Virus record (IMG/VR): IMGVR_UViG_3300022917_000009
Source of the DNA: an uncultured virus (IMG/VR IMGVR_UViG_3300022917_000009)
Taxonomy: Duplodnaviria > Heunggongvirae > Uroviricota > Caudoviricetes
Direction: 5' to 3' (one strand)
Length of the DNA stretch: 64,000 bases
Part shown: positions 22,101 to 57,867 of the stretch, piece by piece
Position numbering within the stretch: the stretch's first letter is position 1
Layout: the number at the start of each line of letters is the position of its first letter
Made by a program: the position numbers and the translations under genes
The notes under the pieces: generated by a model
Seen by the model: the letters and a program-made list of their open reading frames with translations, nothing else
Database searches by the model: none
Told to the model about the DNA's origin: nothing

Positions 22101-24525
22101 GGTGGAACATCGCGACAGGCGCGATTTCCGCCGCCTGCGTCTCCTTCGGCGGATACCCCCAATTGTACCACGTTACGCCACCCTCGACGACAAAGCGCCC
22201 ACTGAGACCGCACACAGCGAAATCCTGCGAGCGGAATCTCTGGGGCTGAGTGTTCTGGGGCACCACAGTTCCATTTGGAAGAGTCCGCAACCGAACGCCC
22301 GTGTTAGTGGAATACCAACTCTCCCCGTCATCGTAGGATCGGGCAATATTCCCGTACTCTCGACTCTGATTCTCGGAAGGGGCAAATTGAACGTAAATCT
22401 CCGGCTGATTCACCCCCGCATCCGCTGTGTGCAGAGGGCCGAAATCAACCTTTTTGATGTCTTGCCCAGTGACCACGTCCCCGGAGAAATTGAACTCGCC
22501 GGAAATAGTCAGACCATCATGAAGCGTGTCGCAGGTCACGCCCCCAGCGATTCCGGGAGTCGTGATGTTGAACCGTGCGAGACGAGGATACCAGTACGTA
22601 CTCCCCGAAGAGTAGTCGTCGTTCGTCCGGAACGAGACGTACACGTTGCCATCTGCGGGATTGAACCATCCCTTTCCGAGGCGCACGGAGGAGCCGCCAG
22701 AGGGCCAGATGGAGGGGGTGTCGGCGAAACTAAAGGATTCGATGGAGAACCCGGAAAGGTCTGAAGTGGCGTAACGGGAAAAATATCTCCCATGCTCGCT
22801 TTCGTTAACCGCTCCCCCGCTTGAAATCGCGTCCATCTCGGTGTCGGTGTCGTCGAGGACAAACCAGTCCGTTGGGAGAACCGTGGCGCGCGGACCGACC
22901 TGCACCGCGCCGAAGGTAACGCCCCCGTCCGTGGACTTGTAAAACCGATGGTAGCTCAGGCCGCTTCCCGCGTAGTAGAAGACGTACTGATCCGAAAAGT
23001 TTTCAGGCCGCACGATGTATTGCTCGGGAGTGAACGTCGCGTCCGCAGTCTTCACGTCGTTGCTGGTAATGGCTCCGGGAACCCCTACGTTTGCGTTCAT
23101 ATCGAAGTGATAGACGCGCGGCTTAAGCGTGGTGTCCTTCGCCGAATATGTGAGGAACGAAAAGGCTGTGTCCCCATCGGCGTCGTCCGTCGTGAACGCG
23201 AAATCAAAAACACGATACTCCTTCGCCTCTCCATCCAGAATCAGCGCGGCGACAATCTCCTTCATGCGCAACGATTCCCGTCGCGAATCGGGGGATGGAT
23301 CGGCGGGATCAATCGTGAATGCCGCGTCAAGAGGCTCCTTCGGACCCGTCGCCGTGGACCACCACACCTGATACGTGTAAGTCGTCGTCTGCACTTGCTG
23401 GACGTTCGACACATTCACGGAATCGGAAGATGTGTCAGCGGTTGCGTAGCTCTCCACCTTCGGTCCAGTGACGGATGCCACTCTCCCTGAATATCCGTGC
23501 ACAGCCACGACCGCCGAAGGCCCCTTGATCCACCGAGAATCCCGGGCGAACTGACTTTGAGGAGGGTTTTGCGCAGTATACGGTGATCCATCGCCGAAAC
23601 AAAGAACTCCTGAAGGAGGCTGCACAAACACCGCATCATGGCACTGTGCTCCCTGAATCTGCACAGCCCCGTTGCTGGCAAGATAGCTCTGCGCTGTTGC
23701 CGTATCCGCAGCGTCCGGGTCTCCGCCGAAGAAGGCGATCACGTATCGAGCGCCACTCAACTTTGCCCGCGTCGGAAACGTCACCGAAACGAGGTCGAAT
23801 CCAGAACGCCGTTCATCGCCCTGACTCCCCTCCTGAGTCCCGGGGATCGTGGCGATATTGATACTTATCTTCGTTCCGGCAACTGCGGACACCGGCTTGA
23901 ATTCTTGATCGGCGGTGTACAGCATGGCGGTAAATACGCCTACCTTGCTGCCCCCTTCCTTTATGAGGAACCTCGCGTAGAACGAGAATCCCTCAATGAA
24001 GATGTCGCCGCTTGAGGTCGCAAACATGGGGATATAGGCAGTGAGCCACCGGTTGTATACCGCGTTGTCTACGCCCTGCCCGTAAAGCGTAAGGAACTGA
24101 CTCGCCCCCCACTGCGAGCCGAAAATCCCACCGATGCGCCCTTCGCCCTCGTTAAGGTTTACCTGCTTGCCGGGATTGGGGAACTGCGGCGAGAAATCCG
24201 ACCACGCCTCGTCAGGCTGGCTTCGATACTTTCGAATCGCAAACCGACAGTCTCCCGTCATTAATCCGGGCGTCGAGGAAACACGGACCGACGGACGACG
24301 CCCCGGCGGCATCAACCCCGCAGTACTGATGACCGCATTCGTATTTATATTCTCCACGCGGAGCGGCTCGACATTCTGCGCGCCCGTCAGGTGGACGCCA
24401 TGAAACGAAACGCTCCATGGGAGAGAGCCCGTTCCCACGGGACGATTATCCAGAACCACGCCGTCAACCGGCGCAGGCTCGGAGGAGCCAAGTTGAAGAT
24501 CGGGGCGCGGAAATAGATTGCTCAT
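19114..24525 (-). CDS. very large tail protein (nozzle/tail tubular B-like with inserted domains)
   Basis: about 1800 aa; Asp-box motifs KSTDGGVTF and RSYDDGESW; position after adaptor genes; TAATG coupling. Confidence 0.55.
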   Translation of the reverse strand: MSNLFPRPDLQLGSSEPAPVDGVVLDNRPVGTGSLPWSVSFHGVHLTGAQNVEPLRVENINTNAVISTAGLMPPGRRPSVRVSSTPGLMTGDCRFAIRKYRSQPDEAWSDFSPQFPNPGKQVNLNEGEGRIGGIFGSQWGASQFLTLYGQGVDNAVYNRWLTAYIPMFATSSGDIFIEGFSFYARFLIKEGGSKVGVFTAMLYTADQEFKPVSAVAGTKISINIATIPGTQEGSQGDERRSGFDLVSVTFPTRAKLSGARYVIAFFGGDPDAADTATAQSYLASNGAVQIQGAQCHDAVFVQPPSGVLCFGDGSPYTAQNPPQSQFARDSRWIKGPSAVVAVHGYSGRVASVTGPKVESYATADTSSDSVNVSNVQQVQTTTYTYQVWWSTATGPKEPLDAAFTIDPADPSPDSRRESLRMKEIVAALILDGEAKEYRVFDFAFTTDDADGDTAFSFLTYSAKDTTLKPRVYHFDMNANVGVPGAITSNDVKTADATFTPEQYIVRPENFSDQYVFYYAGSGLSYHRFYKSTDGGVTFGAVQVGPRATVLPTDWFVLDDTDTEMDAISSGGAVNESEHGRYFSRYATSDLSGFSIESFSFADTPSIWPSGGSSVRLGKGWFNPADGNVYVSFRTNDDYSSGSTYWYPRLARFNITTPGIAGGVTCDTLHDGLTISGEFNFSGDVVTGQDIKKVDFGPLHTADAGVNQPEIYVQFAPSENQSREYGNIARSYDDGESWYSTNTGVRLRTLPNGTVVPQNTQPQRFRSQDFAVCGLSGRFVVEGGVTWYNWGYPPKETQAAEIAPVAMFHHFFRDSAFVNPIKFPLYDSPNTESIWRRSWSKTGSGSWLDAAVDAFLVQVETSDITSSEASPNSVRSARFSDRTITLTNNQVIVDNLQQIAADAQFESFDKIQILISSNQLNGTWRVIKTVGLTETQTILNVNITDLIPTQEIVFYNNLCLPGMKNLVPVDFGGTQNLVGYGLPGFSSVNDGPWIARAGVSYLTTNRISSSNGGFMNFIALARRVGNTWLPGIEGFDDPTELTGCKVALYRCDPTVYETVLDNSSNTLHIPLGGQLLITGTIVVQDGIALIQNPSGDVPTLLQGKPYTDDSGPGTGIRAEFRQTVNATVSRGSDIVNLSYANGNPAYIADRWMIAHEMTLSTVAGTGVVWRIEPLGQNNNEAGSFYPSRAYFPSNVFRLLEPWNGASGTGEFQLVTDSTSLFFGGSLKTNFFTYSINTVLKLSSLRSPIMALGGCRGRLVAICQSEQIVVLESPSGGIYVPRTFGQFAAYDVGLDVQATIRNTSHTCASPWTTNDAAGDLYFKGADEKAYKFDTVQPIPVSDQITGEYFRRQAEHSSTQIVQTPGQLYSQGVQFARMALKNDYHTRQWWQVVVRDFFALDEDGFPTDTTVQFQDVRPLNTQRIAVYPDRRSWVRQENLGEVDAACSAVSVEGEARLAYGSNGRIFIFGKSSIEGENSPEFCYTLGRTDQESLYFLNFPDTQFVPAAEGDEFLPSIYFYSDQMPVPNYRGLQFLMTGILVCKIPTDFNDASTIEWAEIICPTVNPSELPDDPQEQVLGFGDGSTTIFSYEFPSDKVPVRPASLVVRYTSGDVEMQITDDGSGGLVGDVESGGSINYFGGIISGYFSDAPDMDTEITAEWQRDPSLSLALRPQDTWTIAEGETYTLVFGARPWKIEMPSIQPSINFNWISGVNLNVDADASNPEATVAWPFINRIKYTRGKPGYDITTSTLSGNLTQANLQELRYVERYLFEEMSHEFTCEFSGIAPPDSDILFGPIWMEYYEDGNS

Positions 24526-25370
24526 TAGGTGTTGATCGTTTGGACAGCGGCAGAGGGAGCAACGCCGCATGGGCCGTAAAGGTCAATCAGGAGAACTTGC
24601 AAGTACCACGTAAACGGCGTGTTCCAGTCTATCCCCGCCCCACCATTAATATCGCCGCTCGGGATAACAAACCGGGTCTGCTGAGGGCCGCATGCAGCCC
24701 CTTCGGCGGGGACGTGCGCAAGACCGTAATAAATGTCAGGGTCTACTAGGGCTCCCTGCGGGTTCACATCTGGGCTTGTACTAATCACACAGTAAAAGTG
24801 GTGGCCGCCAATAGGGGTGTCGAAAACTATCAGGATGTCGGGCGGCTCTTGATCTATTAGTTCCTGTGCCCAGAACGGCGGAGAAGGGGGAATCGGGCAC
24901 TGACTGTCAAGGCCGCTGCTCCCCGTCTCCGAAAGAGGCACTGGCTGAGGCGCGCCGAGAACGATGGGAGCGCGACCACCCCATGTCTCCTGAGTCAGAC
25001 TGAGAATCTCCCCGCGGCGCCCTGCCTGCTCTCCGATCATGTTCGCGCCGTTGCCGTTGTTCACCCATGCGAGGAGATTGCCGAGACCCTCGACGTGGAC
25101 CATCACGAGAGACTTGGAATCGCGCGGTGAGTCGGTGAAGAACTTGGCGTCAGAATCCTGCTCACCGAGGGCGCCTTGCAGCGGGGCACGGCAAATTCCG
25201 CGAGGGGTAAGATTGTTCGAGCCACTAGCGTTGATGGCCTTGTTGCCAGCGTAATTTGGGCCGATGTCAAACCCATTGAGGGTTTTGAATACGCCCTTGG
25301 CGACACCCTGCACATTCTTGTCGCTGGCTTCCGTGGTGAAGGTGTCGAAGTTGATCCGGCGGAGGGGCAT
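24525..25370 (-). CDS. putative tail structural protein
   Basis: GGAG RBS before MPLRRINF; synteny. Confidence 0.5.
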   Translation of the reverse strand: MPLRRINFDTFTTEASDKNVQGVAKGVFKTLNGFDIGPNYAGNKAINASGSNNLTPRGICRAPLQGALGEQDSDAKFFTDSPRDSKSLVMVHVEGLGNLLAWVNNGNGANMIGEQAGRRGEILSLTQETWGGRAPIVLGAPQPVPLSETGSSGLDSQCPIPPSPPFWAQELIDQEPPDILIVFDTPIGGHHFYCVISTSPDVNPQGALVDPDIYYGLAHVPAEGAACGPQQTRFVIPSGDINGGAGIDWNTPFTWYLQVLLIDLYGPCGVAPSAAVQTINT

Positions 25371-45687: not shown

Positions 45688-45912
45688 ATGGCTACTCAAC
45701 TCGAAAAGATTCAACGCGCTTTGGATGCAGGGGTCGTCAATCAAACGGACCTCGCGAGCGCCAGCGGGGTACATCGCCTCACTGTTCATCGCATTCACAA
45801 GCAGCCGGGATTCGATCCGCGCTGGAGCGACGTGATAAAACTGCATCATGCGCTGGGGAAGATTAAACGGCAAGTACAGGCGCACGCCCGCGGCAAGCGG
45901 GGTGCGGAATGA
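45688..45912 (+). CDS. Cro/XRE-like HTH regulator
   Basis: NQTDLASASGVHRLTVHRI...PRWSDVIKL. Confidence 0.7.
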   Translation: MATQLEKIQRALDAGVVNQTDLASASGVHRLTVHRIHKQPGFDPRWSDVIKLHHALGKIKRQVQAHARGKRGAE

Positions 45913-47873
45913 GCGCCCTCGAACGCATCCCCGTCCAACTCCCGCCGCACAACATGGAAACCGAGGCCGCAGTCCTGGGCGCCATGCTGATGGACAACGA
46001 CGTGATCCCCGATGTCCTTGGGATCGTTAAGCCCGAAGACTTCTATTTCGAGGGCAACCGAATCATCTGCGCGGCCATGGGCGAAATCTGGAACTCGGGA
46101 AGCCCCATAGACCTAACGCTTCTCGCAAACCATCTGCGCGAGCGGAAACTTCTCGACATAGCTGGCGGCGCCCTCCACATAGCCTCTCTTGAGCAGTACG
46201 TACTTTCCAGCGGAGCCGCGCCAGAAAACGCCCGTATCGTCGCGAAGATGGCCGAAGCGAGGCGGCTCTTCGAATACTGCCGGAAGGTTGTGACCGGGGA
46301 AATCCCGTGCCTAAACGGCACCATGGCGAGCACTCTCCGCGACGGCGCCATGATTATCAACGGCGCCCAGAAGCGCCTCGCGATTCGCCGCGAACTGAAA
46401 ACCGGACGCCCCGTCCTGCCAACATTCCCGGTTAACTGCCTGCCGGATTGGCTGGCGCGGTTTGTCGGCCAAGTCTCGTGGGCAAACGAAGCGAACATCG
46501 ACATGTGCTGCTTGCACGCCCTCGGAGTGATCGGCGCCGCACTTGGTGGCCGAGTTCGATGCAACGTCTACGACGATTGGTACGAAGCCATCCAGTTGTA
46601 TCTGCTCACCGTCCTTCCCCCTTCCGACCGGAAAACCAAGGCAACCTCGGAACTCATGCGCCCTGCCGACGACTACGAAGATGACCGGGAGCGCGCCCAC
46701 AAGAAAAAGGCCCGAAGCGCCGCCAAGATGATCCCGTTTTTGAAGAACAAGGTAAAAGCCCTCCAAAAGGAAGCTGCCAAGGGACCACAGGCTCGCGCAG
46801 GAACAGACACGGAACTCGAAGCGGCAGAGACACAACTCGACCTTGCCGAATCCGAGTCGGCCCCATACCGGTATTTCAACAACACAAACCCGACTCCCGA
46901 GTCACTGTGCGCCTGCATGGCCGCGAACAACGGGCGCGGCGCCATCATCACAGACGAAGCAGAGGTTTTCAACACGATCAGTTGGCGCGACGGATCGGCC
47001 AATCTGGGCATCTACCTGAACGGGCACACCAACGCGAAAATTGTGGAGAGTAGAAGCGCCGGGGACCGCATCATCAAATCCGCCGCCCTCACCATCAGCA
47101 TCGCCGCCCAGCCAGCAATGCTCGAAACCCTCGGGAAGGTGGCCGGGGGACGGGGCCGAGGATTCTTCGCCCGGTGGATCATTGCCTGCCCGGAATCTAG
47201 AATCGGATACAGGGAATCAACCTTCGGACGCGCCGTGGAAGACCACGTTCGCGAAACCTACCGGACCCAAGTTCGGAAAATGTACGAAATGCCCGACCGC
47301 GATGACGGGCATCGCTACTACATCGTCAAGTTCTCCAAAGAAGCCGCAGAACTCATGCGGGACATGGACGAATCGCGTGAGCACCGCCTCCGAGAAGGCG
47401 CCGATCTACACTCTTTGGGCGATTGGGCCGGTAAATACACCGGAATGGTCGCCCGGATCGCTACTATCCTACATTTCGCCGAGCATGTGTACGGGGAATT
47501 CGACGCCCGCGATGTAATCCGCAAAGACATCAGCCAAGAATGCTTGGAAAAGGCCGCGGAAATCGGCGAATACTGCATCGAACACATCAAACACGCCTAT
47601 TCCGTCATGGGAGCCGATAGCAGCGGAGCCATGGACGACGCCCGGAAGATCATGGGCTGGTGCGAAAAGACCGGAAACACCGTTTTCGAGCCGCGAGACA
47701 TCCAAATCGCCTTCCGATGGTGGAAAGCCGACGCGGAAAAGATGGAACAAGCCCTCTCCACTCTCGTCGCGAACGGATGGCTCGAAGAGGAAGAGGTCCG
47801 CCCCCCGAAAGGTGGTCGCCCAAAGCGCGTTTTCCACGTCACCGGGAGCATCGAAGAGACCATCAAGGAGTAA
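45909..47873 (+). CDS. replication protein: DnaB N-terminal domain fused to DUF3987/YfjI-like helicase domain
   Basis: PPHNMETEAAVLGAML (DnaB-N); LPPSDRKT, TPESL, DEAE, AQP, GRGFFARW; C-terminal wHTH GGRP. Confidence 0.8.
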   Translation: MSALERIPVQLPPHNMETEAAVLGAMLMDNDVIPDVLGIVKPEDFYFEGNRIICAAMGEIWNSGSPIDLTLLANHLRERKLLDIAGGALHIASLEQYVLSSGAAPENARIVAKMAEARRLFEYCRKVVTGEIPCLNGTMASTLRDGAMIINGAQKRLAIRRELKTGRPVLPTFPVNCLPDWLARFVGQVSWANEANIDMCCLHALGVIGAALGGRVRCNVYDDWYEAIQLYLLTVLPPSDRKTKATSELMRPADDYEDDRERAHKKKARSAAKMIPFLKNKVKALQKEAAKGPQARAGTDTELEAAETQLDLAESESAPYRYFNNTNPTPESLCACMAANNGRGAIITDEAEVFNTISWRDGSANLGIYLNGHTNAKIVESRSAGDRIIKSAALTISIAAQPAMLETLGKVAGGRGRGFFARWIIACPESRIGYRESTFGRAVEDHVRETYRTQVRKMYEMPDRDDGHRYYIVKFSKEAAELMRDMDESREHRLREGADLHSLGDWAGKYTGMVARIATILHFAEHVYGEFDARDVIRKDISQECLEKAAEIGEYCIEHIKHAYSVMGADSSGAMDDARKIMGWCEKTGNTVFEPRDIQIAFRWWKADAEKMEQALSTLVANGWLEEEEVRPPKGGRPKRVFHVTGSIEETIKE

Positions 47874-47989
47874 CCGGCCTCCCAGCACGCGGAACTTCCC
47901 CGACTTCGCTTCCTGCTAGCTTGTAAAAGCGCGGAACTCCCCCGATCAGAGACCTGCCACAAGCCCCCTCTACCGCAGACGACCCAAAT

Positions 47990-48467
47990 TGCAGCACTCG
48001 TGCAGCACTCGACCAAGGAATTTGTCAGATGACCGTTTACTAATCAGACCAAAACAGACCGAGTGCCGCATGGAGAGTTCCATAAGTGTCGAGTGCTGCA
48101 CAGTACTGCACGAGTGCTGTCAGCACTCGTTGTCCAATAGACTCAATGGTTTGGACCGTAAAAAAGTCGAGTGCTGCACGATCCCCCCCCGTGTAAATGT
48201 GTGTGTCTAAATCGACTGCTGCGTATCTGAATTCGTGCAACTTTCAATACTTATACTTATACATCTGATTTTACACGCGTTACGACGATTTTACTTTTAT
48301 ACACGCCGGAAATTTGCAGCACTCGACGATTTTGCCCTCCAAATGACTGATTCTGTTTGAGATCGATTGCTGCATTCCGATTGCAGCACTTGCAGCACTC
48401 GACCCGAAACGGGGTTTTGAAAACCAGTTCGTGATCGGTCGAGTACGAAAGTCAGTGCAGCACTCGG
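47990..48467. repeat. iteron cluster / putative replication origin
   Basis: about 11 copies of (T)GCAGCACTCG(A) in both orientations around an AT-rich core at 48240-48300. Confidence 0.75.
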
Positions 48468-49040
48468 TTTTGGGTGCCGAGTCTCCGTCGGTCCTTTCCG
48501 AGGGCATCGCAAAGGTCGTGAAACGCTACGTGAAACATTTGCCGGAAGCGGGCAACGCGGTTCGGCCTATCTTGTGGCAGCCATCCCGCCCACGCATTGC
48601 CACCGGGAACCGCCCTCCCGTAAGCCCCAGAAGGCCCAAATCCCCGTCCGAGCCATCCCCCACAGGCAAATGGCGATAGAGGTTTAAAAGGGCCGGGATT
48701 GAATCTGTGGGTATGGGGGAGGGCAAAAATCAAAATTGTAGACCTCATGGACGGTATGTATAGCGCAACCGCCCAGCCGAGGGGGCATGGGAAACCGGGC
48801 TTCGGAAACGAACCCCACCCCCCATCGACACCCCGCCGCCGACCGCCTCTCCTTTCGTAAACACTCACTCTTTAATCCCACCGTGACGGCGATGCGGTCC
48901 GGCATGCCTCACGATACCCGCATGAATGGCTGTGATCTATCGCATCTGCTACCAATACAACGTGCGTTGTGTTGGGTTAGGGCGAAGGATGGGCGAAGTT
49001 TTAAGGATGGTTGGGAAGGTCGATACCGCGCGCGAGATGA

Positions 49041-49082
49041 TGTAAAGTTTCTTTACAATGCTCGATGTAAAGTTTGTTTACA
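49041..49082. promoter_or_regulatory. tandem palindromic operators TGTAAAG-TTT-(C/G)TTTACA
   Basis: copies at 49041-49057 and 49066-49082. Confidence 0.6.
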
Positions 49083-49421
49083 TTCGGCTCCTCCGGCGAC
49101 CCCTCTCGCGAGGCAAACTGTTGCAATTTGCAATACCTATTTCGCGGTCCAATAGCCATGATTGATCGAATTGGCACGATTCCGCTCTGCCCTCGCGCCC
49201 CTTGACCAACCAATCAACTAAGCATTTCTCTGCCTAGCCTGTATGTAAATTTCTTCCCACCTATCCCTTGCCGTTCCCGAATCATCCTCCCCGCCGCGAT
49301 AACAATTGCCATTCATACCGTTGTCGTTGTTGAAGTTACTATTTCCTTCCGTTTTGGCATTGCTGTTGCTATCGTTGTATGTCACCGGCACGGACCGGCA
49401 GGCACTCTTAGGAGACGAGAT

Positions 49422-49682
49422 ATGGCGAACGCGACACGCACCCCAATCATCCGGGCAGCGGCCCACGAGTTGAGCGATTATCAGAATGCGGGCACCGGAT
49501 ATGGCCGCACGATTCCCAGTGGGGAGTTTATCGTGGTTGCCCGCGACGCTCGCGGGGACGAGTGGCAACACTCCGCGCTCTTGCCTCGCGATGCGGCGGA
49601 GACGCTTGCGGCAAAGGTGCGTGAGGTGGGGAGCATCAACCGCGCGCATTGGACGGAATTTCGTGGCGTGACAGTCCGCTGA
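49422..49682 (+). CDS. first early gene, hypothetical
   Basis: AGGAG RBS after long AT-richer non-coding region. Confidence 0.6.
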   Translation: MANATRTPIIRAAAHELSDYQNAGTGYGRTIPSGEFIVVARDARGDEWQHSALLPRDAAETLAAKVREVGSINRAHWTEFRGVTVR

Positions 49683-49757
49683 CAGGTCGAAACGCCTCTT
49701 TGGCGTCCGATGGTTTTGCCATCGCTGACGAGACCAAATCCCGCGACGTTAGCGGAC
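49674..49757 (+). ncRNA. hammerhead ribozyme, type II
   Basis: GGUC-GAAA-CGCC/GGCG-UC^-CGAUGG(UUUUG)CCAUCG-CUGACGA-GACC; distal stem GUCCGCUGAC/GUUAGCGGAC. Confidence 0.92.
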
Positions 49758-49779
49758 ACTAGACGAGAGAGACGAGACA

Positions 49780-50019
49780 ATGACAATCAAGCTGCATATC
49801 GTGGCAACAGGGCGCGTGGCACCGTACGGGATCAATGAGACCGTGGAGACGCGCAAGGCCACAACGGCGGAAGGCGTGCGGCGAGTGCTGACTGCCGCGC
49901 ACAAGTCCGGGCATCAAGTAATGGCGTCCGAAATCGACGCGGCCAAGTGCGCGGTTTTGCGGCATGGCGTGACGGTGCCCGCAATGTCCGGGATGGTCCG
50001 CATCCTCGCCGCCTGCTGA
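49780..50019 (+). CDS. hypothetical protein
   Basis: purine-rich RBS; sits between two ribozymes. Confidence 0.6.
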   Translation: MTIKLHIVATGRVAPYGINETVETRKATTAEGVRRVLTAAHKSGHQVMASEIDAAKCAVLRHGVTVPAMSGMVRILAAC

Positions 50020-50023
50020 TAAT

Positions 50024-50093
50024 CGCAGAGCACGCGCGGCCCTTTACCATCCGCGCCGCGCGCAATGCGGCAAGCCGGGTTGCAAGCCCCGGC
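50024..50093 (+). ncRNA. twister ribozyme, P5-type permutation
   Basis: GCA-GA-GCA, P1 CGCGCGGC/GCCGCGCG, C^AA-UGC-GGC, P4 GCCGG-GUUGCAAGCC-CCGGC; L4 UGC pairs with GCA (T1). Confidence 0.8.
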
Positions 50094-50122
50094 GAAACTC
50101 AAATCACTTCGGAGAAATCACC

Positions 50123-50299
50123 ATGCAGGCACGAATCGAAAACGGCAAACTCATTATCGAAATCGCCCTGATAGATGCCGTTCCATCTTCCTCCGGGAAG
50201 TCTCTTTTGATAGTCCAAGGCGGAGCGCAAAAGCCGGGGATTCAGCACATGGGGCGCCCGGTGACGGTGTCGGTCAACGCCTTCATCCCCGCGAAGTAA
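50123..50299 (+). CDS. 58-aa conserved small protein (PSSSGKS motif)
   Basis: MQARIENGKLIIEI...PSSSGKSLLI...VTVSVNAFIP; GGAG RBS; below ORF cutoff. Confidence 0.65.
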   Translation: MQARIENGKLIIEIALIDAVPSSSGKSLLIVQGGAQKPGIQHMGRPVTVSVNAFIPAK

Positions 50300-50344
50300 G
50301 CGAATCCACTTTTCACCCTCGCCGGACCATCCAAGGAGACTTCC

Positions 50345-50488
50345 GTGCACGTGCTCTTGCTCCATCCCCTAATCGCTTTGGCCTTCCTCGCGGCAGACGA
50401 CCGAAACCTATTTGCCGACTTCGCCGCTTCGCAGGTTTGGGCAATGCATTCGCAGGGCTTCCAAGCTATCGTTTTGGAGGGGTTTTGA
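50345..50488 (+). CDS. small hypothetical protein
   Basis: AAGGAG RBS, GTG start, TGATG coupling to AAA+ gene. Confidence 0.45.
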   Translation: MHVLLLHPLIALAFLAADDRNLFADFAASQVWAMHSQGFQAIVLEGF

Positions 50489-51123
50489 TGCCAACCCTCG
50501 CCGACAAATACCGCCCCGCGACACTTGACGACCTCGCCGGGTTTGACGACGTGAAGGGCAAAATCCGCCGCATACTTGCGCGGGGAAATGGGGCAGGCGG
50601 TCGCGCGTGGTGGCTGTCGGGACCGTCGGGAGTAGGCAAGACTTCGGCGGCCCGCATCATCGCCGCAAGCCTCGCCCATCCGGCATCCGTGCGGGAAATC
50701 GACGCGGGCACGCTGACTTGCGCGGCCCTTGAAGACATCGCCGACTCTTGCGCCTCCCGGTCAATTTTTGTGCCGCACGGCAACGCGCTAATCGTGAATG
50801 AAGCGCACGGGTTGCGAAAGGACACAATCCGCCGGTTGCTTGTGTGGCTTGAGGATTTGGCGCCGTGGACGACCGTTGTTTTCACCACGACAACCAAGGG
50901 GCAGATGTCCCTCTTTGAAGACCATCACGACGCGGCGCCACTCCTCTCGCGCTGCCTGTCGTTTGACCTCGACACGAAGGGCCAAGTCCCAGCCTTCGCC
51001 GCGCATTTGGGGAAGGTCGCCGAACGCGAGGGCATCCCCGTAACTCTCGACGCGTTGCGGTTCATGCTCGCGGGGAAGTCCAATAATCTCCGCGCGTGCT
51101 TGATGGAATTGGAAACCGCCTAG
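50488..51123 (+). CDS. clamp-loader-clade AAA+ ATPase (DnaX/RFC-like, no collar domain)
   Basis: LADKYRP, GPSGVGKTS, IVNEAH, LLSRC, NLRAC. Confidence 0.85.
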   Translation: MPTLADKYRPATLDDLAGFDDVKGKIRRILARGNGAGGRAWWLSGPSGVGKTSAARIIAASLAHPASVREIDAGTLTCAALEDIADSCASRSIFVPHGNALIVNEAHGLRKDTIRRLLVWLEDLAPWTTVVFTTTTKGQMSLFEDHHDAAPLLSRCLSFDLDTKGQVPAFAAHLGKVAEREGIPVTLDALRFMLAGKSNNLRACLMELETA

Positions 51124-51181
51124 CGCTTCCGCGCGCTTCGCACCTCGCCGCCCGCAGGAAAGGCCAAGGAGGCCAAGGACA

Positions 51182-51334
51182 GTGGAGCGAATCACCGCCG
51201 CACAAGCTCAGATTATGAAGCAGGTTTGCCTCATTGATCAAGTACTTGGAAAGGGGGGCGTCGAGATTGCGGGAATTCACGACGCACAGGCAGAGGATTG
51301 GGCGCGAGCAGAATGGAGCCGCGCCAACCCCTAA
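51182..51334 (+). CDS. small hypothetical protein
   Basis: AAGGA RBS, GTG start, stop just before hammerhead. Confidence 0.45.
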   Translation: MERITAAQAQIMKQVCLIDQVLGKGGVEIAGIHDAQAEDWARAEWSRANP

Positions 51335-51340
51335 CTCCCC

Positions 51341-51397
51341 GCCCTGACGAGACTCCCTTGGCCGGAGTCGAAACGCCGCGAGGCGTCGGCAATGCCA
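51341..51397 (+). ncRNA. hammerhead ribozyme, type I with pseudoknot
   Basis: GCC-CUGACGA-GACUCC(CUUGGCC)GGAGUC-GAAA-CGCC(GCGA)GGCG-UC^-GGC; loop II UGGC pairs with 3' GCCA. Confidence 0.92.
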
Positions 51398-51417
51398 GAT
51401 GACAAGGAGAAACGGAA

Positions 51418-52188
51418 ATGGGATTCCAAGCGGTCCATGAGGTGAAAGAGGCGAAGGCCAAGCGCCAGGAGCGGGCGGCTTTTTACACGCCGTTGTCGCT
51501 CGTTGCCGAATTGGTGGAATGGGCGGCGCCAATGCCCTCCATGCTCTGCCTTGAGCCATCGGCGGGAGACGGGCGGATTGTCCACGCGCTCCGAGAGGCT
51601 GGCGTGCGCGTGGTCCATGCCTGCGAGATTGACGACACAATGCGGGCGAAGTGTGAGAGCGAGGGCGCAACGATCCTCGGCGCTGACTTTCTCGCGGTTC
51701 CTCCCTCGGCGATTTACGACCGGGTTTTGATGAATCCGCCTTTCATCGGCGCCACGTACCGCAAGCATATCGAGCACGCTTTCCGGTTCCTTCGCCCCGG
51801 CGGCATGCTCGTTGCCATCGCCCCCAGCAAGGCAGAATTCGAGGTGTCCCAATCCGAATGGACATTGCCCGGCTGTGAAAATGTCGCATTCGAGCGCGTG
51901 GAATCCGAACGGTTCAAGGAGGAGGGGACGAACATCGCGACGATCATTGTCCGCATCTATGCCCCCGACGACCACCCCGCACCGCTTTACGATTGCAGCA
52001 ACTACGCGACGGGTAACGCCGCCGTGACCGTGGGAAGCAATTGCGAGACATACGAAGCCATCCGCCGCGACCCTGAGCGCGTGCGTGAGATTTCCCTCCC
52101 GTACATGCGGGGCTTTGGCCTCACGGGCTACGGCGTAAACTGGCAAGAGGTGCGGGAATATATCTGCGGTGAGGACGGCGACCAATGA
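51418..52188 (+). CDS. N6-adenine DNA methyltransferase (orphan)
   Basis: FYTP, LEPSAGDG (SAM binding), MNPPF catalytic motif. Confidence 0.85.
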   Translation: MGFQAVHEVKEAKAKRQERAAFYTPLSLVAELVEWAAPMPSMLCLEPSAGDGRIVHALREAGVRVVHACEIDDTMRAKCESEGATILGADFLAVPPSAIYDRVLMNPPFIGATYRKHIEHAFRFLRPGGMLVAIAPSKAEFEVSQSEWTLPGCENVAFERVESERFKEEGTNIATIIVRIYAPDDHPAPLYDCSNYATGNAAVTVGSNCETYEAIRRDPERVREISLPYMRGFGLTGYGVNWQEVREYICGEDGDQ

Positions 52189-52577
52189 AAACTGCACAAA
52201 CCGAATACGTGGACTATCGCGCCCGCGCCGCTGCTGAATTTGCCGAACGCATCACGGCGTTAGGCTTCACGGTCTACCTCGCCGAGTCGGGCCGGTATGG
52301 ATTTATCACAGACAACACCGAGAAGCGCGTTCTAAGCTTTTCTTTCGATGGGATAGAGAACGCGCTAAGCGGCAACTATGGCCCTCCCAGCACTCAGAGC
52401 GGAACCGGTTGGCGCCTCGACTTCGGCCCGGAATCGCTGCAATCGAAAGAGGATGTCCGGCGCGCGCTCTATGCCCTTCCGGCGTTTTGCGGTAACGGCT
52501 GGAAGTACCTTACAACCGTCAAGCAGCACCTCGCCGAATATGGCGCATCGTCGCGCTACACCAAGCATGGAGCCTAA
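52185..52577 (+). CDS. hypothetical protein
   Basis: ATGA overlap. Confidence 0.6.
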   Translation: MKTAQTEYVDYRARAAAEFAERITALGFTVYLAESGRYGFITDNTEKRVLSFSFDGIENALSGNYGPPSTQSGTGWRLDFGPESLQSKEDVRRALYALPAFCGNGWKYLTTVKQHLAEYGASSRYTKHGA

Positions 52578-52579
52578 CA

Positions 52580-52665
52580 GCCCGAAACTCCCCGCCTTTA
52601 CATTCACTTCCACTTCCGCGCGGGGAGTCTGGCGGTTTTGCCGCCACTGAAGAGCCCGAAAGGGC
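52580..52665 (+). ncRNA. hammerhead ribozyme, type II, aberrant stem II
   Basis: GAAA-CUCCCCGC/GCGGGGAG-UC^-UGGCGG(UUUUG)CCGCCA-CUGAAGA; stem II interrupted by 8-nt GCCCGAAA. Confidence 0.7.
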
Positions 52666-52704
52666 CTTGGGGCAGTGCAACGCAGGGATCAAGGAGACGG
52701 ACCG

Positions 52705-53022
52705 ATGAGCGAACAGAACGAACCGGCGGCATCAATTCGGATGCACCACGGCGGGTTGTTTAATCAGTTGCTAAATGAAACCGGGCGCGAGGTCGCCGTA
52801 ATTGCCTCCCACGACACGGCGACGGGAGCGCGCATGGTTGACTCTTACAACGCGCTTGCCGCGTACCCTAACCCGGCGGCGGTGCCGGGCGTGGTGGATG
52901 CGCTGAAGCGAGCAATTTCCATAATCGAAGACTTGCCCTTCCCCGACGACCTGCCTGCCAAAGACCTCCGCGCTGCCCTTGCGGCCCTCGGCGCTCCCAC
53001 TGCGGCGGAGGTGGGGAAATGA
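52705..53022 (+). CDS. hypothetical protein
   Basis: AAGGAG RBS. Confidence 0.6.
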   Translation: MSEQNEPAASIRMHHGGLFNQLLNETGREVAVIASHDTATGARMVDSYNALAAYPNPAAVPGVVDALKRAISIIEDLPFPDDLPAKDLRAALAALGAPTAAEVGK

Positions 53023-53747
53023 GCATCTACGGGACCACCTACAAGCCGTTCAGCTACGTGAAGGCCGACGTGGCCGTTGCTTACCTCGTGGAAAAGGCCG
53101 GATGGGTTTTGCGCCAGCGTGACGCCGACCATGGCGTGTTGGTTGCGCCGCAGAGGGACGACAACGGCGGGGAAATCTTCTTCCCGGTCTATCGCTCGCA
53201 CGCCACATCGGCGCGGGCGTGGGCATTCTCCGAAGAGCAATTGCACAAGTATCCGGGCATCCTCTCGACGCTCGCCGCGCTTTACGGCGGCACCGCGCGC
53301 GACATGGCAACCGAGATTTCCGGGATTTACGAAACCATCGTTGGGCGCGATAATGCCGGGCATCAGCGGTTTGTTGTGTGCTTCGGACTTTACAAGCCCA
53401 TTCCTCCGTCCTTCGTCGCCTTTATGCCGGTTATTTTCTCCATGGGCGAGATGCTAGAGAACGGCGAGCGGGTGACTTGTTACGGCTTCGCCCGCTCTGA
53501 GGCCGACATACCAGAGGGCGCCGTCATTGAGAACGTTTCCGTTTCCTCGGCAGTCGCACTTGGCTGGTCGTACGAAAAGGCCAGCCTATACGACGAGGAG
53601 GGTGTCGAGGGTTGGCGCTGGACATCTCCCGCCGGTGATACGTTTGACGAAATTGGAGGCTGGAACGAAGCGCCCGTTGTTCCTGAGGCGGCACGGCATG
53701 CCGTGAAGCGTTCCGAGCAGGCCGACGAAGCGGGGAGGCGGGGATGA
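53019..53747 (+). CDS. hypothetical protein
   Basis: ATGA overlap, GGAGG RBS. Confidence 0.6.
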   Translation: MSIYGTTYKPFSYVKADVAVAYLVEKAGWVLRQRDADHGVLVAPQRDDNGGEIFFPVYRSHATSARAWAFSEEQLHKYPGILSTLAALYGGTARDMATEISGIYETIVGRDNAGHQRFVVCFGLYKPIPPSFVAFMPVIFSMGEMLENGERVTCYGFARSEADIPEGAVIENVSVSSAVALGWSYEKASLYDEEGVEGWRWTSPAGDTFDEIGGWNEAPVVPEAARHAVKRSEQADEAGRRG

Positions 53748-53914
53748 CAACCTCATTCACAATCAAATACCTCACCAAGTGCGACGATATGGGGCGGTGT
53801 CAATTCACCCTCTCATGGTGCCAGCATTACGCCCCCGGATACGTGGGGATGCCGTGGATGCGCACTCAGGTTTTCTTCGCCGATCCCACAAGCTACGGAT
53901 TTCCCAGACCATGA
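53744..53914 (+). CDS. small hypothetical protein
   Basis: ATGA overlaps at both ends (MTTSFTIKY...). Confidence 0.5.
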   Translation: MTTSFTIKYLTKCDDMGRCQFTLSWCQHYAPGYVGMPWMRTQVFFADPTSYGFPRP

Positions 53915-54117
53915 CAGACAACGAGCTAATCGAGTACGGATTCCGAAAGGGCCACTTCTGGTATCTCGGCGAATTCGCGAAGCCCGGCAATCCACGGCAC
54001 AGCATCGACATCGTGGACGGGTGGAGAATGTCGCCCGCTTTCAAGTCCGGGAGGCTATCGGCGAATGCCCGACTAATCCTCACCCAGCACGCCACCGGCG
54101 ACGGAGAAATCAAATGA
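53911..54117 (+). CDS. hypothetical protein
   Basis: ATGA overlaps. Confidence 0.5.
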   Translation: MTDNELIEYGFRKGHFWYLGEFAKPGNPRHSIDIVDGWRMSPAFKSGRLSANARLILTQHATGDGEIK

Positions 54118-54749
54118 TCGTTACGACCGCCTTTTGTGACCGATGCGGGAAGCAGCAACCGCCCGACGTGTATTGGGCGGAGGTCGTCAAGACCTTCGTG
54201 TTTGACCTCCGCGCCGACGGGATAAATGGCGTCCCTCGCAACGTGGACCTGTGCGGATCGTGCCGCCGCGCGGTGATTGCCGCGATGGATGAAGCACTCA
54301 AGCCGCAACCATCTCCCGCCCCCACGTTCGCCGCGCCCATGACGAACGGAATGCCGGAAGGACTGAAGGAAATTACTCAGGGAGCGATGGCAACAGGTCG
54401 CTACGAAGGCTCGGAAGACACGATCATATTTCGGTCGCCCGATGGGAATTGGCGCCCGGTTGCGCGCGTGACGACCAACGTAGACACCGAAAACGTACGC
54501 GCACTCTTCGCCGCCGCCCCGGACCACGCCCTGCTGCTCGCGGCGATAATGGCCGGACGCGCCAATATGCTCTATCCGCATGAGATGGACATGCACGCGG
54601 ACGAAATTGAGGGAGTGCCAACCGAGGTACTTGTGCGGGACGGCGATGGCACCGTTGCGTATCCTATCGTGCGTGATTCATTCGGTGGACAGATAGTTGA
54701 CGACGCCCTGCGCGCCGCGCTCGTGAAGGCGCTGGAGGGGAAGCCATGA
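54114..54749 (+). CDS. zinc-finger-containing hypothetical protein
   Basis: CDRCG and DLCGSC motifs. Confidence 0.55.
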   Translation: MIVTTAFCDRCGKQQPPDVYWAEVVKTFVFDLRADGINGVPRNVDLCGSCRRAVIAAMDEALKPQPSPAPTFAAPMTNGMPEGLKEITQGAMATGRYEGSEDTIIFRSPDGNWRPVARVTTNVDTENVRALFAAAPDHALLLAAIMAGRANMLYPHEMDMHADEIEGVPTEVLVRDGDGTVAYPIVRDSFGGQIVDDALRAALVKALEGKP

Positions 54750-54922
54750 GACGGTTGATATATCGACTCCTCGGCGTCTGCTTCCATCACTGGAAATACG
54801 GCGCAGTTAAGAACCTGACTGCGACAGTACCCGGCTCTCCCGGCGAGTGGGAAGTTACGCGCCAAGAGCGAACCTGCCGCATCTGTGGGAAGAAGGAATT
54901 TGCCAAGATGTTGGAGTTGTGA
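54746..54922 (+). CDS. small zinc-binding protein
   Basis: CFHHW...CRICGK; ATGA overlap. Confidence 0.5.
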   Translation: MRRLIYRLLGVCFHHWKYGAVKNLTATVPGSPGEWEVTRQERTCRICGKKEFAKMLEL

Positions 54923-55039
54923 TTCTGCCCGCCTCGAAGCCCCTCGCCTGCGGCAGCAAGAACACGTCGCGCGTCGCAGGTCTGAGGCTTCAGGGCGCGC
55001 AGGGTTGGCGCTAGAAGGACACGACAAGGAGAGCCGAAC

Positions 55040-55297
55040 GTGGGAAAGAAAACCGCCGCACCCGTATCGCGATACGAAGCTGCCCTCGCCGACGAACATC
55101 CTCTCGCCGAGTGGTGCGAAGCATTGGCGACGAAGCCGAAGACCCGGCACTTGTCGCCGGAACTGATCTACGACGCTGCCGTGCGCAATTGCTGGGATGA
55201 GCGCCGGTTACGTCTGATGAGCCCGGCAGACCTCGCCGCGCTTGAAGTCCCGCATCCGAGTGTTACATGGCCATCTATGATTGAGGAGGCGCTCTAA
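55040..55297 (+). CDS. hypothetical protein
   Basis: AAGGAG RBS. Confidence 0.55.
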   Translation: MGKKTAAPVSRYEAALADEHPLAEWCEALATKPKTRHLSPELIYDAAVRNCWDERRLRLMSPADLAALEVPHPSVTWPSMIEEAL

Positions 55298-55725
55298 TGC
55301 TCTTCGCCGTCGAAACCACAGCATCCGCCTCGGTGAACCCCGCGCCGGAGTCGTTCGTCCGCCGCCTCGCCATGAAGTTCCGCCGCTTCACCGACGCACA
55401 AACCGCCGCGCGGGACGCTTCACTCTCGGCGACAAAGGGCGTGCTGAAGTGCAACGCCCGGGTGGTGCCGGAAGATGCGGAAGCCGAGCACGAACTCTCC
55501 CGCATGAAATTCTGGCGCTCCTGTTTCGAGAAGGCGCTGGACCTCCGCGCGGCGCAGTTTGAAAAGGCGAAGGCCAAGGCGCTGGAATTCCCCTGCGCTG
55601 AGACGCTCGCCGCCGTCACTGTCACGAAGACCAAGTGGGAGACGAACCCGACGCACGATGAAGTCCTGCGCCTTGTCATCGCCGAGGCTCGCGCGGAGTG
55701 GGCGCAGAGGGAGCGGGCACGATGA
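55297..55725 (+). CDS. hypothetical protein
   Basis: TAATG coupling. Confidence 0.55.
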   Translation: MLFAVETTASASVNPAPESFVRRLAMKFRRFTDAQTAARDASLSATKGVLKCNARVVPEDAEAEHELSRMKFWRSCFEKALDLRAAQFEKAKAKALEFPCAETLAAVTVTKTKWETNPTHDEVLRLVIAEARAEWAQRERAR

Positions 55726-55940
55726 GGCCGAACACTCACTACTCCCGCGTGGTCTATATCGACTTCCCGGCTTCCGACATCACGACCCTGCGAGCCATCG
55801 AAGAAGCGCACGAATTGGCCGTCGAGGAGGACGTTGTTGTGCGCTTCAACCTCAACGGCTGGGATTGCGAAGTGACGCGGTGGCACAAGCCGAAGGAAGT
55901 AGATGCGGCGTTTAAGAAGTGGTTGAAGGCTGAGCTATGA
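55722..55940 (+). CDS. hypothetical protein
   Basis: ATGA overlap. Confidence 0.55.
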   Translation: MRPNTHYSRVVYIDFPASDITTLRAIEEAHELAVEEDVVVRFNLNGWDCEVTRWHKPKEVDAAFKKWLKAEL

Positions 55941-56242
55941 CTCTCCGCCGATTCTTCGCCGCCATCCTCCCCTCACCCTCGGTGCCCCGCCGCTTTCCGC
56001 GCGCCTTGGTCTCCTCCCGCATGGAATTCTGGCAGGAGGCCAAGCGCGCGCTGTACCGCGAGCGATCCGAGACGTTGAACCACCTGCAATCCATCGCCGC
56101 GAACTTTCCGGGCGATGAAAACGAGGAGCGGGCCGGGCGCGCCGCTCTGCAATTCTCGGTGCCCCTCACGCACGCGGAAATCGTCGGCTGGATTCACGGC
56201 GAGGCCCTGCGCGAGGCGATGGAAGAGAGGAGCGGGAGATGA
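55937..56242 (+). CDS. hypothetical protein
   Basis: ATGA overlap. Confidence 0.55.
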   Translation: MTLRRFFAAILPSPSVPRRFPRALVSSRMEFWQEAKRALYRERSETLNHLQSIAANFPGDENEERAGRAALQFSVPLTHAEIVGWIHGEALREAMEERSGR

Positions 56243-56463
56243 GCGGAATCGAAACGAACAACCGCGAGGATCGCGAGGATGGCCGGTGGTATGCGGCTTC
56301 AGGCAGTGGTTCTTCGGCGCGCCCTTGGTTCGTCGGGCGCAAGATAGGTCCCGGGCGAGGGCACGAAAATGCCGAGAGTAGCAAAGGCATTCGCAGGTGC
56401 TTCGCAACTCGCCGCGTCGCTCAGGATGCAGCAGACAAATTGAACAATGAGGTGGCCAAATGA
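56239..56463 (+). CDS. hypothetical protein
   Basis: ATGA overlap. Confidence 0.5.
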   Translation: MSGIETNNREDREDGRWYAASGSGSSARPWFVGRKIGPGRGHENAESSKGIRRCFATRRVAQDAADKLNNEVAK

Positions 56464-56609
56464 CCTCCCTCCTCTCCCTGTTTCCCTGCTCGCCCTTGCT
56501 GATCGTGGTCGTGCTGGTCGCCGGGTCTTTTGTCTGCGGGCTTTTCTCTAGGCGCCCGCCTGAGTCGTGAACCTCGACGAACCGCCGCACTTCATCCTCG
56601 CCGCTCTTC

Positions 56610-56644
56610 GCCCCTCCGCTCCGGCTGAGGGGCTTTTCTTTTTC
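56610..56644 (+). terminator. intrinsic terminator
   Basis: GCCCCTC..GAGGGGC followed by TTTTCTTTTT. Confidence 0.8.
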
Positions 56645-56753
56645 CCTCGGCGACAACCACTTCCGCACGCTAAATAATTCTCGCCCTACCCCGCATTATT
56701 TCCTTGACCCGGCGCCCGCATTTTGAGGGCATGCGGCCAAGGAGAAAAAGCAA

Positions 56754-56969
56754 ATGGCAGACAACAAGACCAAGCGAGCCCCGACGGTAAGCGCGCGGGA
56801 GTTCGCGGCGAGTCACGGAGTCCACGTCAAGACCGTGCATGCCGCGTGCCGGGCCGGGCTGCTGAAGTTCAAGAAGGACGCGCTCGGGTTTTATCGCATC
56901 CCCGACGGGCCGAAAAACAGGGCGGCGTTCGCGAAGCGCCCGGCGCCGGGAAGGAAGCGGGGGAAGTGA
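56754..56969 (+). CDS. excisionase-like HTH protein
   Basis: VSAREFAASHGVHVKTVHAACRAG; AAGGAG RBS. Confidence 0.65.
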   Translation: MADNKTKRAPTVSAREFAASHGVHVKTVHAACRAGLLKFKKDALGFYRIPDGPKNRAAFAKRPAPGRKRGK

Positions 56970-57199
56970 GCAACCACACATACACCGAGGAGCAGGTTCG
57001 CAAAGCCGTTGCCGATGCGTTCGGAGTCGGGATGGCGATGGGTCTGATAGATGCTGGCGTGGACCCTGTAACCAGCATCATATCAATTTCCAGATACACG
57101 GATAACGGGGATCGCGTGGTTGCCATCCGTTCCATACAGGACAAGGTAGTCGCGAGGCTAGTGGCTGGGGTGGCCTTAAGGAAGTCGCAAGAGAACTGA
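56966..57199 (+). CDS. hypothetical protein
   Basis: GTGA overlap; YTEEQVRKAV resembles the 38941..39177 N-terminus. Confidence 0.5.
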   Translation: MSNHTYTEEQVRKAVADAFGVGMAMGLIDAGVDPVTSIISISRYTDNGDRVVAIRSIQDKVVARLVAGVALRKSQEN

Positions 57200-57249
57200 T
57201 CCCAGCAGGTCCGCCGCGCAGTACATTCTGAAGAGGAGCAAGGACACCG

Positions 57250-57867
57250 ATGCCTACCGGATACACAGCACCAGTTGCAGACGGAGAGATTGTGGAGTTC
57301 AACGAGTTCGCATGGAACTGCGCACGGGCATTCGGCGCACTGTACTTTCTGCGCGATGCCGACGAAGGCAAGGATGGGCAGCGCCGCATTCCGAAGACGC
57401 TCCCGACCGTGTGCGACTGGAACCAAAAGCGCCTTCAGGAATCTGTAGCCGCTCTCGCCGCCTTCGAAAAGATGAGCCCCAAAAGGCTCGTGGCCGCATA
57501 CGAAAAGCACGTGCGAGACGCGAAGGAAACCGGGAAGAAGTATGCCGCAGAGGTCCGTGAAAAGAAGCTGCGATACAACACCATGCTCAAGAAGGTGCGG
57601 GCGTGGGAATCCCCGAGCAGCGATCACGAGGAATTCAAGAAGTTCATGATCCAGCAATTGGAGGAGTCCATCCAATTCGATTGCGGGCATACGTACAAGC
57701 CGGAATGGGCCAAGAGCATCGTCATTTTCGTGGCTCAAAGAATCGCCTCGCTCAATCGCGACATCGAATACCACACCAAGGAGCACGCCGCCGAGGTCGA
57801 GCGCACTGCTGGCCGCAACGCGTGGATCACAAAGCTGGCCGAATCTCTGGACGCCAAAGGAGCCTGA
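57250..57867 (+). CDS. conserved phage hypothetical protein
   Basis: MPTGYTA..F.EFA..CARAFGA..W..P..DH..K.FMIQQL family pattern. Confidence 0.65.
   Translation: MPTGYTAPVADGEIVEFNEFAWNCARAFGALYFLRDADEGKDGQRRIPKTLPTVCDWNQKRLQESVAALAAFEKMSPKRLVAAYEKHVRDAKETGKKYAAEVREKKLRYNTMLKKVRAWESPSSDHEEFKKFMIQQLEESIQFDCGHTYKPEWAKSIVIFVAQRIASLNRDIEYHTKEHAAEVERTAGRNAWITKLAESLDAKGA

Follow-up and report, generated by a model that had tools for sequence, protein, structure and literature searches.

The window analysed here, the whole stretch of 64,000 nucleotides (nt) of an uncultured virus of the Caudoviricetes (IMG/VR record IMGVR_UViG_3300022917_000009), carries on its plus strand a well-formed type II hammerhead, which lies within a stretch of 84 nt (49674-49757) between two small genes. 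Judging from its sequence, it is likely that this element is a genuine self-cleaving hammerhead that processes the RNA of the operon in which it is found.

Structure and class of the hammerhead

An initial annotation, made from the letters of the DNA, had placed the core nucleotides of a hammerhead at this site, and when read from the sequence all of them are found where it had put them: GAAA at 49689-92, GUC at 49705-07 and CUGACGA at 49725-31. The parts of the element are the following.

49674-83, plus strand: 5' strand of the outer helix, containing the TGA stop codon; pair probabilities of 0.87-1.0 in a 161-nt context
49685-88, plus strand: 5' strand of stem II, GGUC, preceded by A49684, which is conserved in the subtype
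49689-92, plus strand: core G12 A13 A14 A15.1 (GAAA)
49692-49706, plus strand: stem III hairpin of 5 base pairs (bp) with loop UCUUU, strands 49692-96/49702-06, closed by A15.1-U16.1
49707, plus strand: C17; cleavage is predicted 3' of C49707, from the hammerhead consensus position
49708-49724, plus strand: stem-loop I of 17 nt, 49708-13/49719-24, 6 bp and a closing U-G, loop UUUUG 49714-18
49725-49731, plus strand: core C3-A9 (CUGACGA)
49732-35, plus strand: 3' strand of stem II, GACC, followed by the AAA tail 49736-38
49744-47, plus strand: competitor CGAC, the predicted partner of GUCG 49686-89, competing with stem II
49748-57, plus strand: 3' strand of the outer helix

The conserved core (C3 U4 G5 A6 N7 G8 A9, G12 A13 A14 and H17, which is not G) is present in full, and the pairs that close the junction are intact (G10.1-C11.1 is G49732-C49688, and A15.1-U16.1 is A49692-U49706). 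The three stems pair as had been described, with 4 bp in stem II, 5 bp in stem III and 6 bp plus the U-G in stem I. They follow the G-S-C order, stems I and III being closed by loops and stem II open, with 7, 4 and 5 pairs in the descriptor used for the search. The element is a complete type II (G-S-C) hammerhead, as initially proposed, and the alignment to the Rfam family RF02276 gives the same core assignments.

The motif is real and is no chance event. The descriptor covered the three circular permutations that a hammerhead can take, and scanning both strands of the window with it returned exactly one type II match in the 64 kb, at the site listed above, as well as a single type I candidate (51344-51387). 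Windows shuffled 100 times with their dinucleotides preserved had on average 0.01 type II, 0.08 type I and 0.06 type III matches, and matches with every stem of at least 4 bp occurred at 0.01 per shuffled window. Moreover, the folding energy of the 84-nt stretch has a z of -4.15 against shuffles, and the minimum-energy fold of the minimal element (49685-49739) is the hammerhead structure, at -20.9 kcal/mol and with a stem II probability of ~0.91.

Relatives were sought in IMG/VR with a pattern in which the core, stem III and the inner two pairs of stem II were set, while stem I, the loops, the outer pairs of stem II and the flanks could vary. At least 128 loci were found, and the matches listed fall into two forms, a long-loop form with 85 sequences and a short-loop form with 40 relatives plus the window copy. 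Among the matches listed, the short-loop form has a stem-loop I of 17-19 nt, and in 40 of 41 sequences its stem II is exactly 4 bp long. In the long-loop form, also among the matches listed, the complementarity between loop I and the 3' tail is clear, at 5.38 as opposed to 4.21 for mismatched controls, and it is the type II pseudoknot given in the published consensus (PMC3088659). The short-loop, pseudoknot-less type II hammerhead is frequent in viral contigs (for example at the loci L019, L033, L040, L047, L121 and L126); an A is conserved ahead of its stem II, and a U and a G flank its 3-nt loop I.

The initial annotation had also suggested that the loop I UUUUG could contact CAAA in the stem II bulge. 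UUUG 49715-18 is indeed complementary to CAAA 49735-38, a pairing that uses C49735 of stem II, but the class gives this contact no support, since the equivalent columns are only 36.6% paired in 41 relatives and complementarity is 2.76 against 2.87 in mismatched controls. A loop I/tail pseudoknot in the short-loop form was dropped because it is without covariation.

The pairing of the other free parts could be followed in an alignment of 41 short-form IMG/VR relatives from which the window was excluded. Six pairs of stem I vary on both sides while the helix stays 97.2% paired, and the two outer pairs of stem II alternate between G-C, A-U and C-G. The covariation score was 0.466 against 0.132 for shuffled alignments, a value reached by 0 of 500 shuffles, and sliding the 3' partners by 1-3 columns lowered pairing from 88.8% to 28-45%. 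Some single bases lying outside the pattern are conserved as well: the A 5' of stem II (39 of the 41 relatives; A49684 in the window), the U opening loop I (38 of 41; U49714), the G closing it (32 of 41; also present in the window) and the A after stem II (30 of 41; A49736). It is possible that A49684, U49714 and A49736 make a non-Watson-Crick contact.

The place of the element in its message is that of its class. Among the matches listed, 76 have at least 400 nt of flank, the window copy included, and these were used for counting. An upstream open reading frame (ORF) of at least 50 codons has its stop between -20 and +11 nt from the ribozyme 5' strand in 71 of the 76, against 73 of 425 random positions, and the stop most often lies 3-7 nt ahead of this strand, so in or against stem II. 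A Shine-Dalgarno sequence and a start codon follow within 90 nt downstream in 64 of the 76, at a median of 25 nt. In the window, the hammerhead abuts the stop codon (TGA 49680-82) of the upstream ORF 49422-49682, in agreement with the initial annotation; the stop is at -7, as in 11 others. The distance to the start codon, 46 nt, is among the longer ones, because the strand of the extra outer helix intervenes. The initial annotation had inferred that ribosomes terminating here could modulate the folding, which they may do; the overlap with the stop codon is real, but it is a habit of the whole class. The main text of Perreault 2011 (PMC3088659) contains neither "stop codon" nor "ribosome" nor "Shine-Dalgarno" (0 occurrences each), and this slot goes unmentioned there.

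Several observations weigh against the reading as a working hammerhead. The biological role of phage hammerheads is described as unproven in passages of PMC6765202. RF02276 (Hammerhead_II) aligned to 49685-49739 with only 19.1 bits (E-value, E, of 0.059) against a cut-off of 37 in a 111-nt search, and it gave no match at the gathering threshold in a scan of the 64 kb, nor in a 3-kb E-value scan. The covariance model R1, which was built from the 41 short-form relatives with the window excluded, gave the window copy 65.1 bits (E 1.6e-16), but part of this score is circular because the search pattern was derived from the window copy; the core, stem III and the inner stem II pairs of the relatives fetched with it match by construction. 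Furthermore, no homologue of the locus, which would bear on the conservation of the window copy and of its outer helix, was found in the searches described below. Finally, nearest-neighbour models of the element with its natural flanks place a competing fold at -35.7 kcal/mol, against -33.7 kcal/mol for the hammerhead with its outer helix, with a probability of stem II of 0.008.

The search for a homologous locus was made in several ways. Protein searches of viral contigs with the clamp-loader-like protein, the 79-aa (amino acid) product of the downstream ORF and the helicase revealed none. Against genome contigs, the helicase found 4 distant loci (27-43% identity, N-terminal part only), and the clamp-loader-like protein found one locus among metagenome contigs, L257, with 23 residues matched; no hammerhead was found at L257, where the best R1 match had 10.3 bits. 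In addition, a blastn search of 49400-51450 against INPHARED gave no match, and tblastn of the helicase gave only matches below 60% identity. Of two sets of contigs compared with the window, one, its probable source, was identical to it from end to end, and the other had only scattered identical pieces, none of which covers the hammerhead.

As to the score, the gathering score in Rfam is a database threshold and not a biochemical feature, and the low value is a property of the short-loop form, not of the window copy. The short-loop form lies mostly below the cut-off of 37 bits, which is reached by 3 of 36 short-form loci. In one scan 0 of 16 reached 37 bits, 12 having 19.8-36.9 bits and 4 being without a match, and in the other 3 of 20 reached the cut-off, as opposed to 41-46 bits for long-form neighbours.

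The outer helix and alternative readings

The initial annotation had described a 10-bp distal stem that includes the upstream TGA. The pairing itself stood, as 10 contiguous pairs with one G-U link 49674-83 to 49748-57 and the TGA is included, but the helix is no feature of the class: the flank duplex energy of the short-type set averages -10.75 against -10.78 in controls. In the window the flank duplex reaches -23.9, the strongest of 41 short-type sequences. By itself the helix is no more than mildly unusual: a contiguous helix of at least 10 bp with the same geometry is present at 74 of 2696 sampled window positions (2.7%), and the energy of this duplex is reached by 3.6% of shuffled flanks and 14.6% of natural flanks of the same geometry. 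At none of the three further ribozyme sites of the window is there an outer helix of this kind, the longest flank helices there being of 5-6 bp.

According to the nearest-neighbour models, the outer helix would continue with four more pairs between GUCG 49686-89 and CGAC 49744-47, a helix that excludes stem II and buries G12. The alternative pairs have predicted probabilities of 0.92-0.96 in both the 84-nt and the 161-nt contexts, and a barrier of 7.8 kcal/mol is predicted to separate the two folds. In these models, the outer helix is not simply an extension of stem II and, weakly, would act as a brake rather than as a stabiliser. However, relatives folded with -45/+22 nt of flank have a median stem II probability of 0.04, with 61% of them below 0.1, and the models ignore the non-canonical pairs of the core and the tertiary contacts. 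The competing fold is weak evidence because the relatives are also predicted to lose stem II and because of these omissions. The outer helix is specific to the window copy, and most likely it is incidental or a modest brake or clamp.

A stronger role for this helix would make the element a real hammerhead sequence whose present copy is throttled or switched off, with a 14-pair clamp replacing stem II and hiding C11.1 and G12, a reading that we consider unlikely. Cleavage would then be slow unless the clamp were opened, for instance by a ribosome ending the upstream ORF, and the clamp would hold the products together. It would fit with this reading that the clamp fold is predicted to be 2 kcal/mol better than hammerhead plus outer helix, that a barrier of only 7.8 kcal/mol should let the folds equilibrate, that the flank duplex is the strongest of its set, and that the final codons of the upstream ORF, its stop included, hold the 5' strand of the clamp. 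The topology argues in the same direction, since only a 4-bp stem II links the products, so that a 10-bp helix would change their release. On the other hand, helices of this length and duplex energy occur at the frequencies given above, neither the class nor the three further ribozyme sites of the window show one, and no homologous locus was found in which conservation of the clamp could be followed. Moreover, relatives without such a helix are predicted to misfold equally often, which makes the models poor judges of the question.

A more specific form of this idea, which has a small chance of being correct, is that of a translation-licensed hammerhead, in which the 14-pair clamp would hold the ribozyme off until ribosomes on the 86-aa ORF open it. 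In untranslated RNA, the clamp (49674-83/49748-57 together with 49686-89/49744-47) would hide C11.1 and G12; ribosomes reaching the last codons would unzip its 5' strand and stem II would form, so that the RNA would be cut only behind a translating ribosome. On RNA that is not translated, the clamp would also retain cut pieces together. If this were true, the hammerhead would be a sensor of upstream translation.

It is very unlikely that the element has mainly a non-cleaving role, as an intercistronic insulator, as stabilising hairpins or as a transcription pause or terminator, with catalysis being vestigial. Hairpins I and III are stable and lie between a stop codon and a ribosome-binding site, as such a role would have it, but the catalytic core is fully intact (in the relatives it is invariant by construction), no T-run follows the structure and the sole overlapping terminator-like call is on the minus strand; nor does a hairpin function explain the conservation of unpaired core bases. 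A chance resemblance, in which a GC-rich intergenic cluster of hairpins happens to spell a hammerhead core with no catalytic role, would sit well with the Rfam score under the cut-off and the lack of a homologue of the locus, but it is hardly credible given 0.01 type II matches expected per shuffled window, the presence of subtype-specific conserved bases outside the search pattern, the 65.1 bits with the relatives' model, the same stop-to-ribosome-binding-site slot as the class, and a twister above the Rfam cut-off with two more hammerhead-like elements in the operon.

Predicted ribozymes and genes along the operon

All genes around the hammerhead are on the plus strand, and further ribozyme-like elements lie among them.

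45909-47873, plus strand: helicase gene (PHROG)
49422-49682, plus strand: upstream ORF, 86 aa, stop TGA 49680-82; G+C content at third codon positions (GC3) 0.71; no Pfam or PHROG match
49685-49739, plus strand: type II hammerhead
49780-50019, plus strand: downstream ORF, 79 aa, between hammerhead and twister; GC3 0.78; no family match
50024-50091, plus strand: twister-P5 (RF02684)
50123-50299, plus strand: ORF
50345-50488, plus strand: ORF
50488-51123, plus strand: AAA+ clamp-loader-like gene
51338-51398, plus strand: type I hammerhead candidate (descriptor scan)
51418-52188, plus strand: methyltransferase gene
52185-52577, plus strand: ORF
52576-52667, plus strand: second type II hammerhead, irregular (R1 model)
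52675-53022, plus strand: ORF

The twister-P5 at 50024-50091 is a full-length match to RF02684 (50.2 bits, gathering score 37.6, E 1.8e-07) and the only Rfam match at gathering thresholds. It lies 290 nt downstream of the hammerhead, 4 nt past the stop of the 79-aa ORF and 32 nt ahead of the next start (ATG 50123), and the twister-P5 and the hammerhead bracket the 79-aa ORF. As it belongs to a different class from the hammerhead, it bears only on the bounding of this ORF. Roth et al. in 2014 and Weinberg et al. in 2015 are said to have noted that twisters and hammerheads are often close together in bacteria. No twister was found at the gathering score in the 3-kb loci of 20 relatives, and no further Rfam families were found in 48500-51500 or 52600-57300.

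The type I candidate, just upstream of the methyltransferase gene, has CUGACGA at 51344-50, a stem II of 6 bp, GAAA at 51370-73, a stem III of 5 bp and C17 at 51387. Its stem I has only 3 bp; among 119 matches to a type I pattern in IMG/VR, the candidate itself included, this stem usually has 5-6 bp, and 3 bp were found in 5 of 119. A 5-bp pseudoknot between loop II (51358-62) and the tail (51394-98) is possible, and among the type I matches a complementarity of at least 5 between a large loop II and the tail occurs in 30.6% against 14.8% of controls. With RF00163 the candidate has 14.9 bits, below the cut-off.

The second type II element (52576-52667) was matched by R1 with 35.7 bits (E 6e-08) and by RF02276 with 22.9 bits. 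A TAA stop codon (52575-77) lies just upstream, and the element combines GAAA at 52584-87, a 9-bp stem III, C17 at 52629, a stem I at 52630-46 with the same UUUUG loop as the first copy, and CUGAAGA at 52647-53. Between CUGAAGA and the GGGC meant to close stem II there are eight extra bases, which repeat the 5' strand of stem II and the start of GAAA. Were these bases removed, the element would have the canonical short form; their presence allows a local GNRA-capped hairpin to capture GGGC, and an alternative with a 1-bp stem II and a 5-bp loop I/tail pairing is possible. Readings of it as a closed stem II hairpin, a type III hammerhead or a four-way junction were discarded, as none fits hammerhead connectivity. 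From its sequence, the activity of this second element is doubtful; it may serve as a decoy or a switch, or be a dead copy.

Four elements with motifs of self-cleaving ribozymes lie within a few kb of one strand, each of them between a stop codon and the next start, and the operon would contain up to four ribozymes. If the first hammerhead works as its sequence suggests, it would be transcribed within a plus-strand polycistronic message comprising the helicase, the small ORFs, the AAA+ clamp-loader-like gene and the methyltransferase. The three-way junction would form and the backbone would be cut 3' of C49707. The 5' product would be the message of the 86-aa ORF, with the stem III hairpin and a 2',3'-cyclic phosphate at its new 3' end. 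The 3' product would be the message of the 79-aa ORF, which would carry a 5'-OH and open with the stem I hairpin, 72 nt ahead of the start codon; owing to the type II topology, only stem II would join the two products. Cuts at the hammerhead and at the twister, at the position we take to be its cleavage site, would release the 79-aa ORF on a piece of ~350 nt. The further elements would cut ahead of the methyltransferase gene and ahead of the ORF 52675-53022, so that the four of them would chop the operon RNA into pieces of one to a few genes, whose new, hairpin-capped ends would presumably alter stability or translation rate piece by piece. Processing of RNA into pieces of differing stability or translatability is suggested in passages of PMC3088659 and PMC6765202, and is unproven according to them.

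The initial annotation had taken the gene upstream of the hammerhead for the first early gene, which was not borne out: this gene is itself preceded on the plus strand by that of the helicase (45909-47873), and the search for promoter-like sites of that strand in 47800-51500 yielded none. The segment that separates the helicase gene from the ribozyme-punctuated genes, 47874-49421, has a lower G+C content, 0.55 against ~0.60. All the ORFs in it, on either strand, are short and of doubtful coding status, and it may have a regulatory function or be an origin.

As a whole, the window looks like DNA of an uncultured phage, or of a related mobile element, in which very few genes can be recognised. 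Its PHROG matches are a helicase, a clamp loader, a methyltransferase, a serine recombinase, a tail fibre and an ERCC4 nuclease, and its Pfam matches are LPD38 and Resolvase. No capsid, portal or terminase was recognised among the window proteins with PHROG or Pfam, most large ORFs are unmatched, and the small ORFs near the ribozymes have no family match. Two very large ORFs are found on the minus strand, at 3104-8335 and 19114-24570 (1743 and 1818 aa), the first with the LPD38 "large polyvalent protein" domain, and the minus-strand block 8332-36187 is mostly without any Pfam or PHROG match.

Relation to known systems and significance

Type II hammerheads are reported as common in bacteria in passages of Perreault 2011 (PMC3088659), where in prophages multiple hammerheads flank single genes or short gene blocks and three tandem arrangements were cleaved during in vitro transcription. 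Passages of de la Pena 2017 (PMC6155905) likewise describe hammerheads that flank small, non-conserved ORFs and that are persistently linked to phages. Both type II hammerheads and ribozyme clusters around small genes of phages are of a kind described since 2011.

Compared with the bacterial and prophage type II hammerheads (RF02276; PMC3088659), the window copy has the same core, the same G-S-C order with capped stems I and III and an open stem II, and a phage-like context. It differs in that the published consensus, as given in that source, has a pseudoknot between loop I and the 3' tail, whereas the window copy is of the short-loop form with none detectable; its 17-nt stem-loop I, its 4-bp stem II and its extra 10-bp outer helix also set it apart from RF02276. 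With the clustered prophage ribozymes of Perreault 2011 and de la Pena 2017, as far as these passages go, the locus shares several motifs in ~3 kb on one strand in intergenic positions, and the flanked ORFs are likewise small and without known function. The cluster is different in its composition, with one twister-P5, two type II hammerheads (one of them irregular) and one type I candidate, and in its host element, in which hardly any gene is recognisable and for which the collections searched gave no close relative. In Desulfovibrio vulgaris, cyPhyRNA-seq of total RNA detected the cleavage of three predicted type II hammerheads, as described in passages of PMC8782182; these hammerheads have the same topology and also phage-origin genes nearby, and they differ from the window copy, which is known from its sequence, in having cleavage at the RNA level.

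The short-loop form is abundant in IMG/VR, where the pattern found at least 128 loci of both forms, and yet it remains mostly under the Rfam cut-off, with 3 of 36 loci reaching it. Routine annotation under-counts phage hammerheads because this form mostly misses that cut-off. The flush position between a stop codon and a ribosome-binding site makes the role of these ribozymes for phage mRNAs experimentally approachable, and the window copy, with and without its competing clamp, is a natural pair of constructs for the study of gating by flanking structure or by translation.

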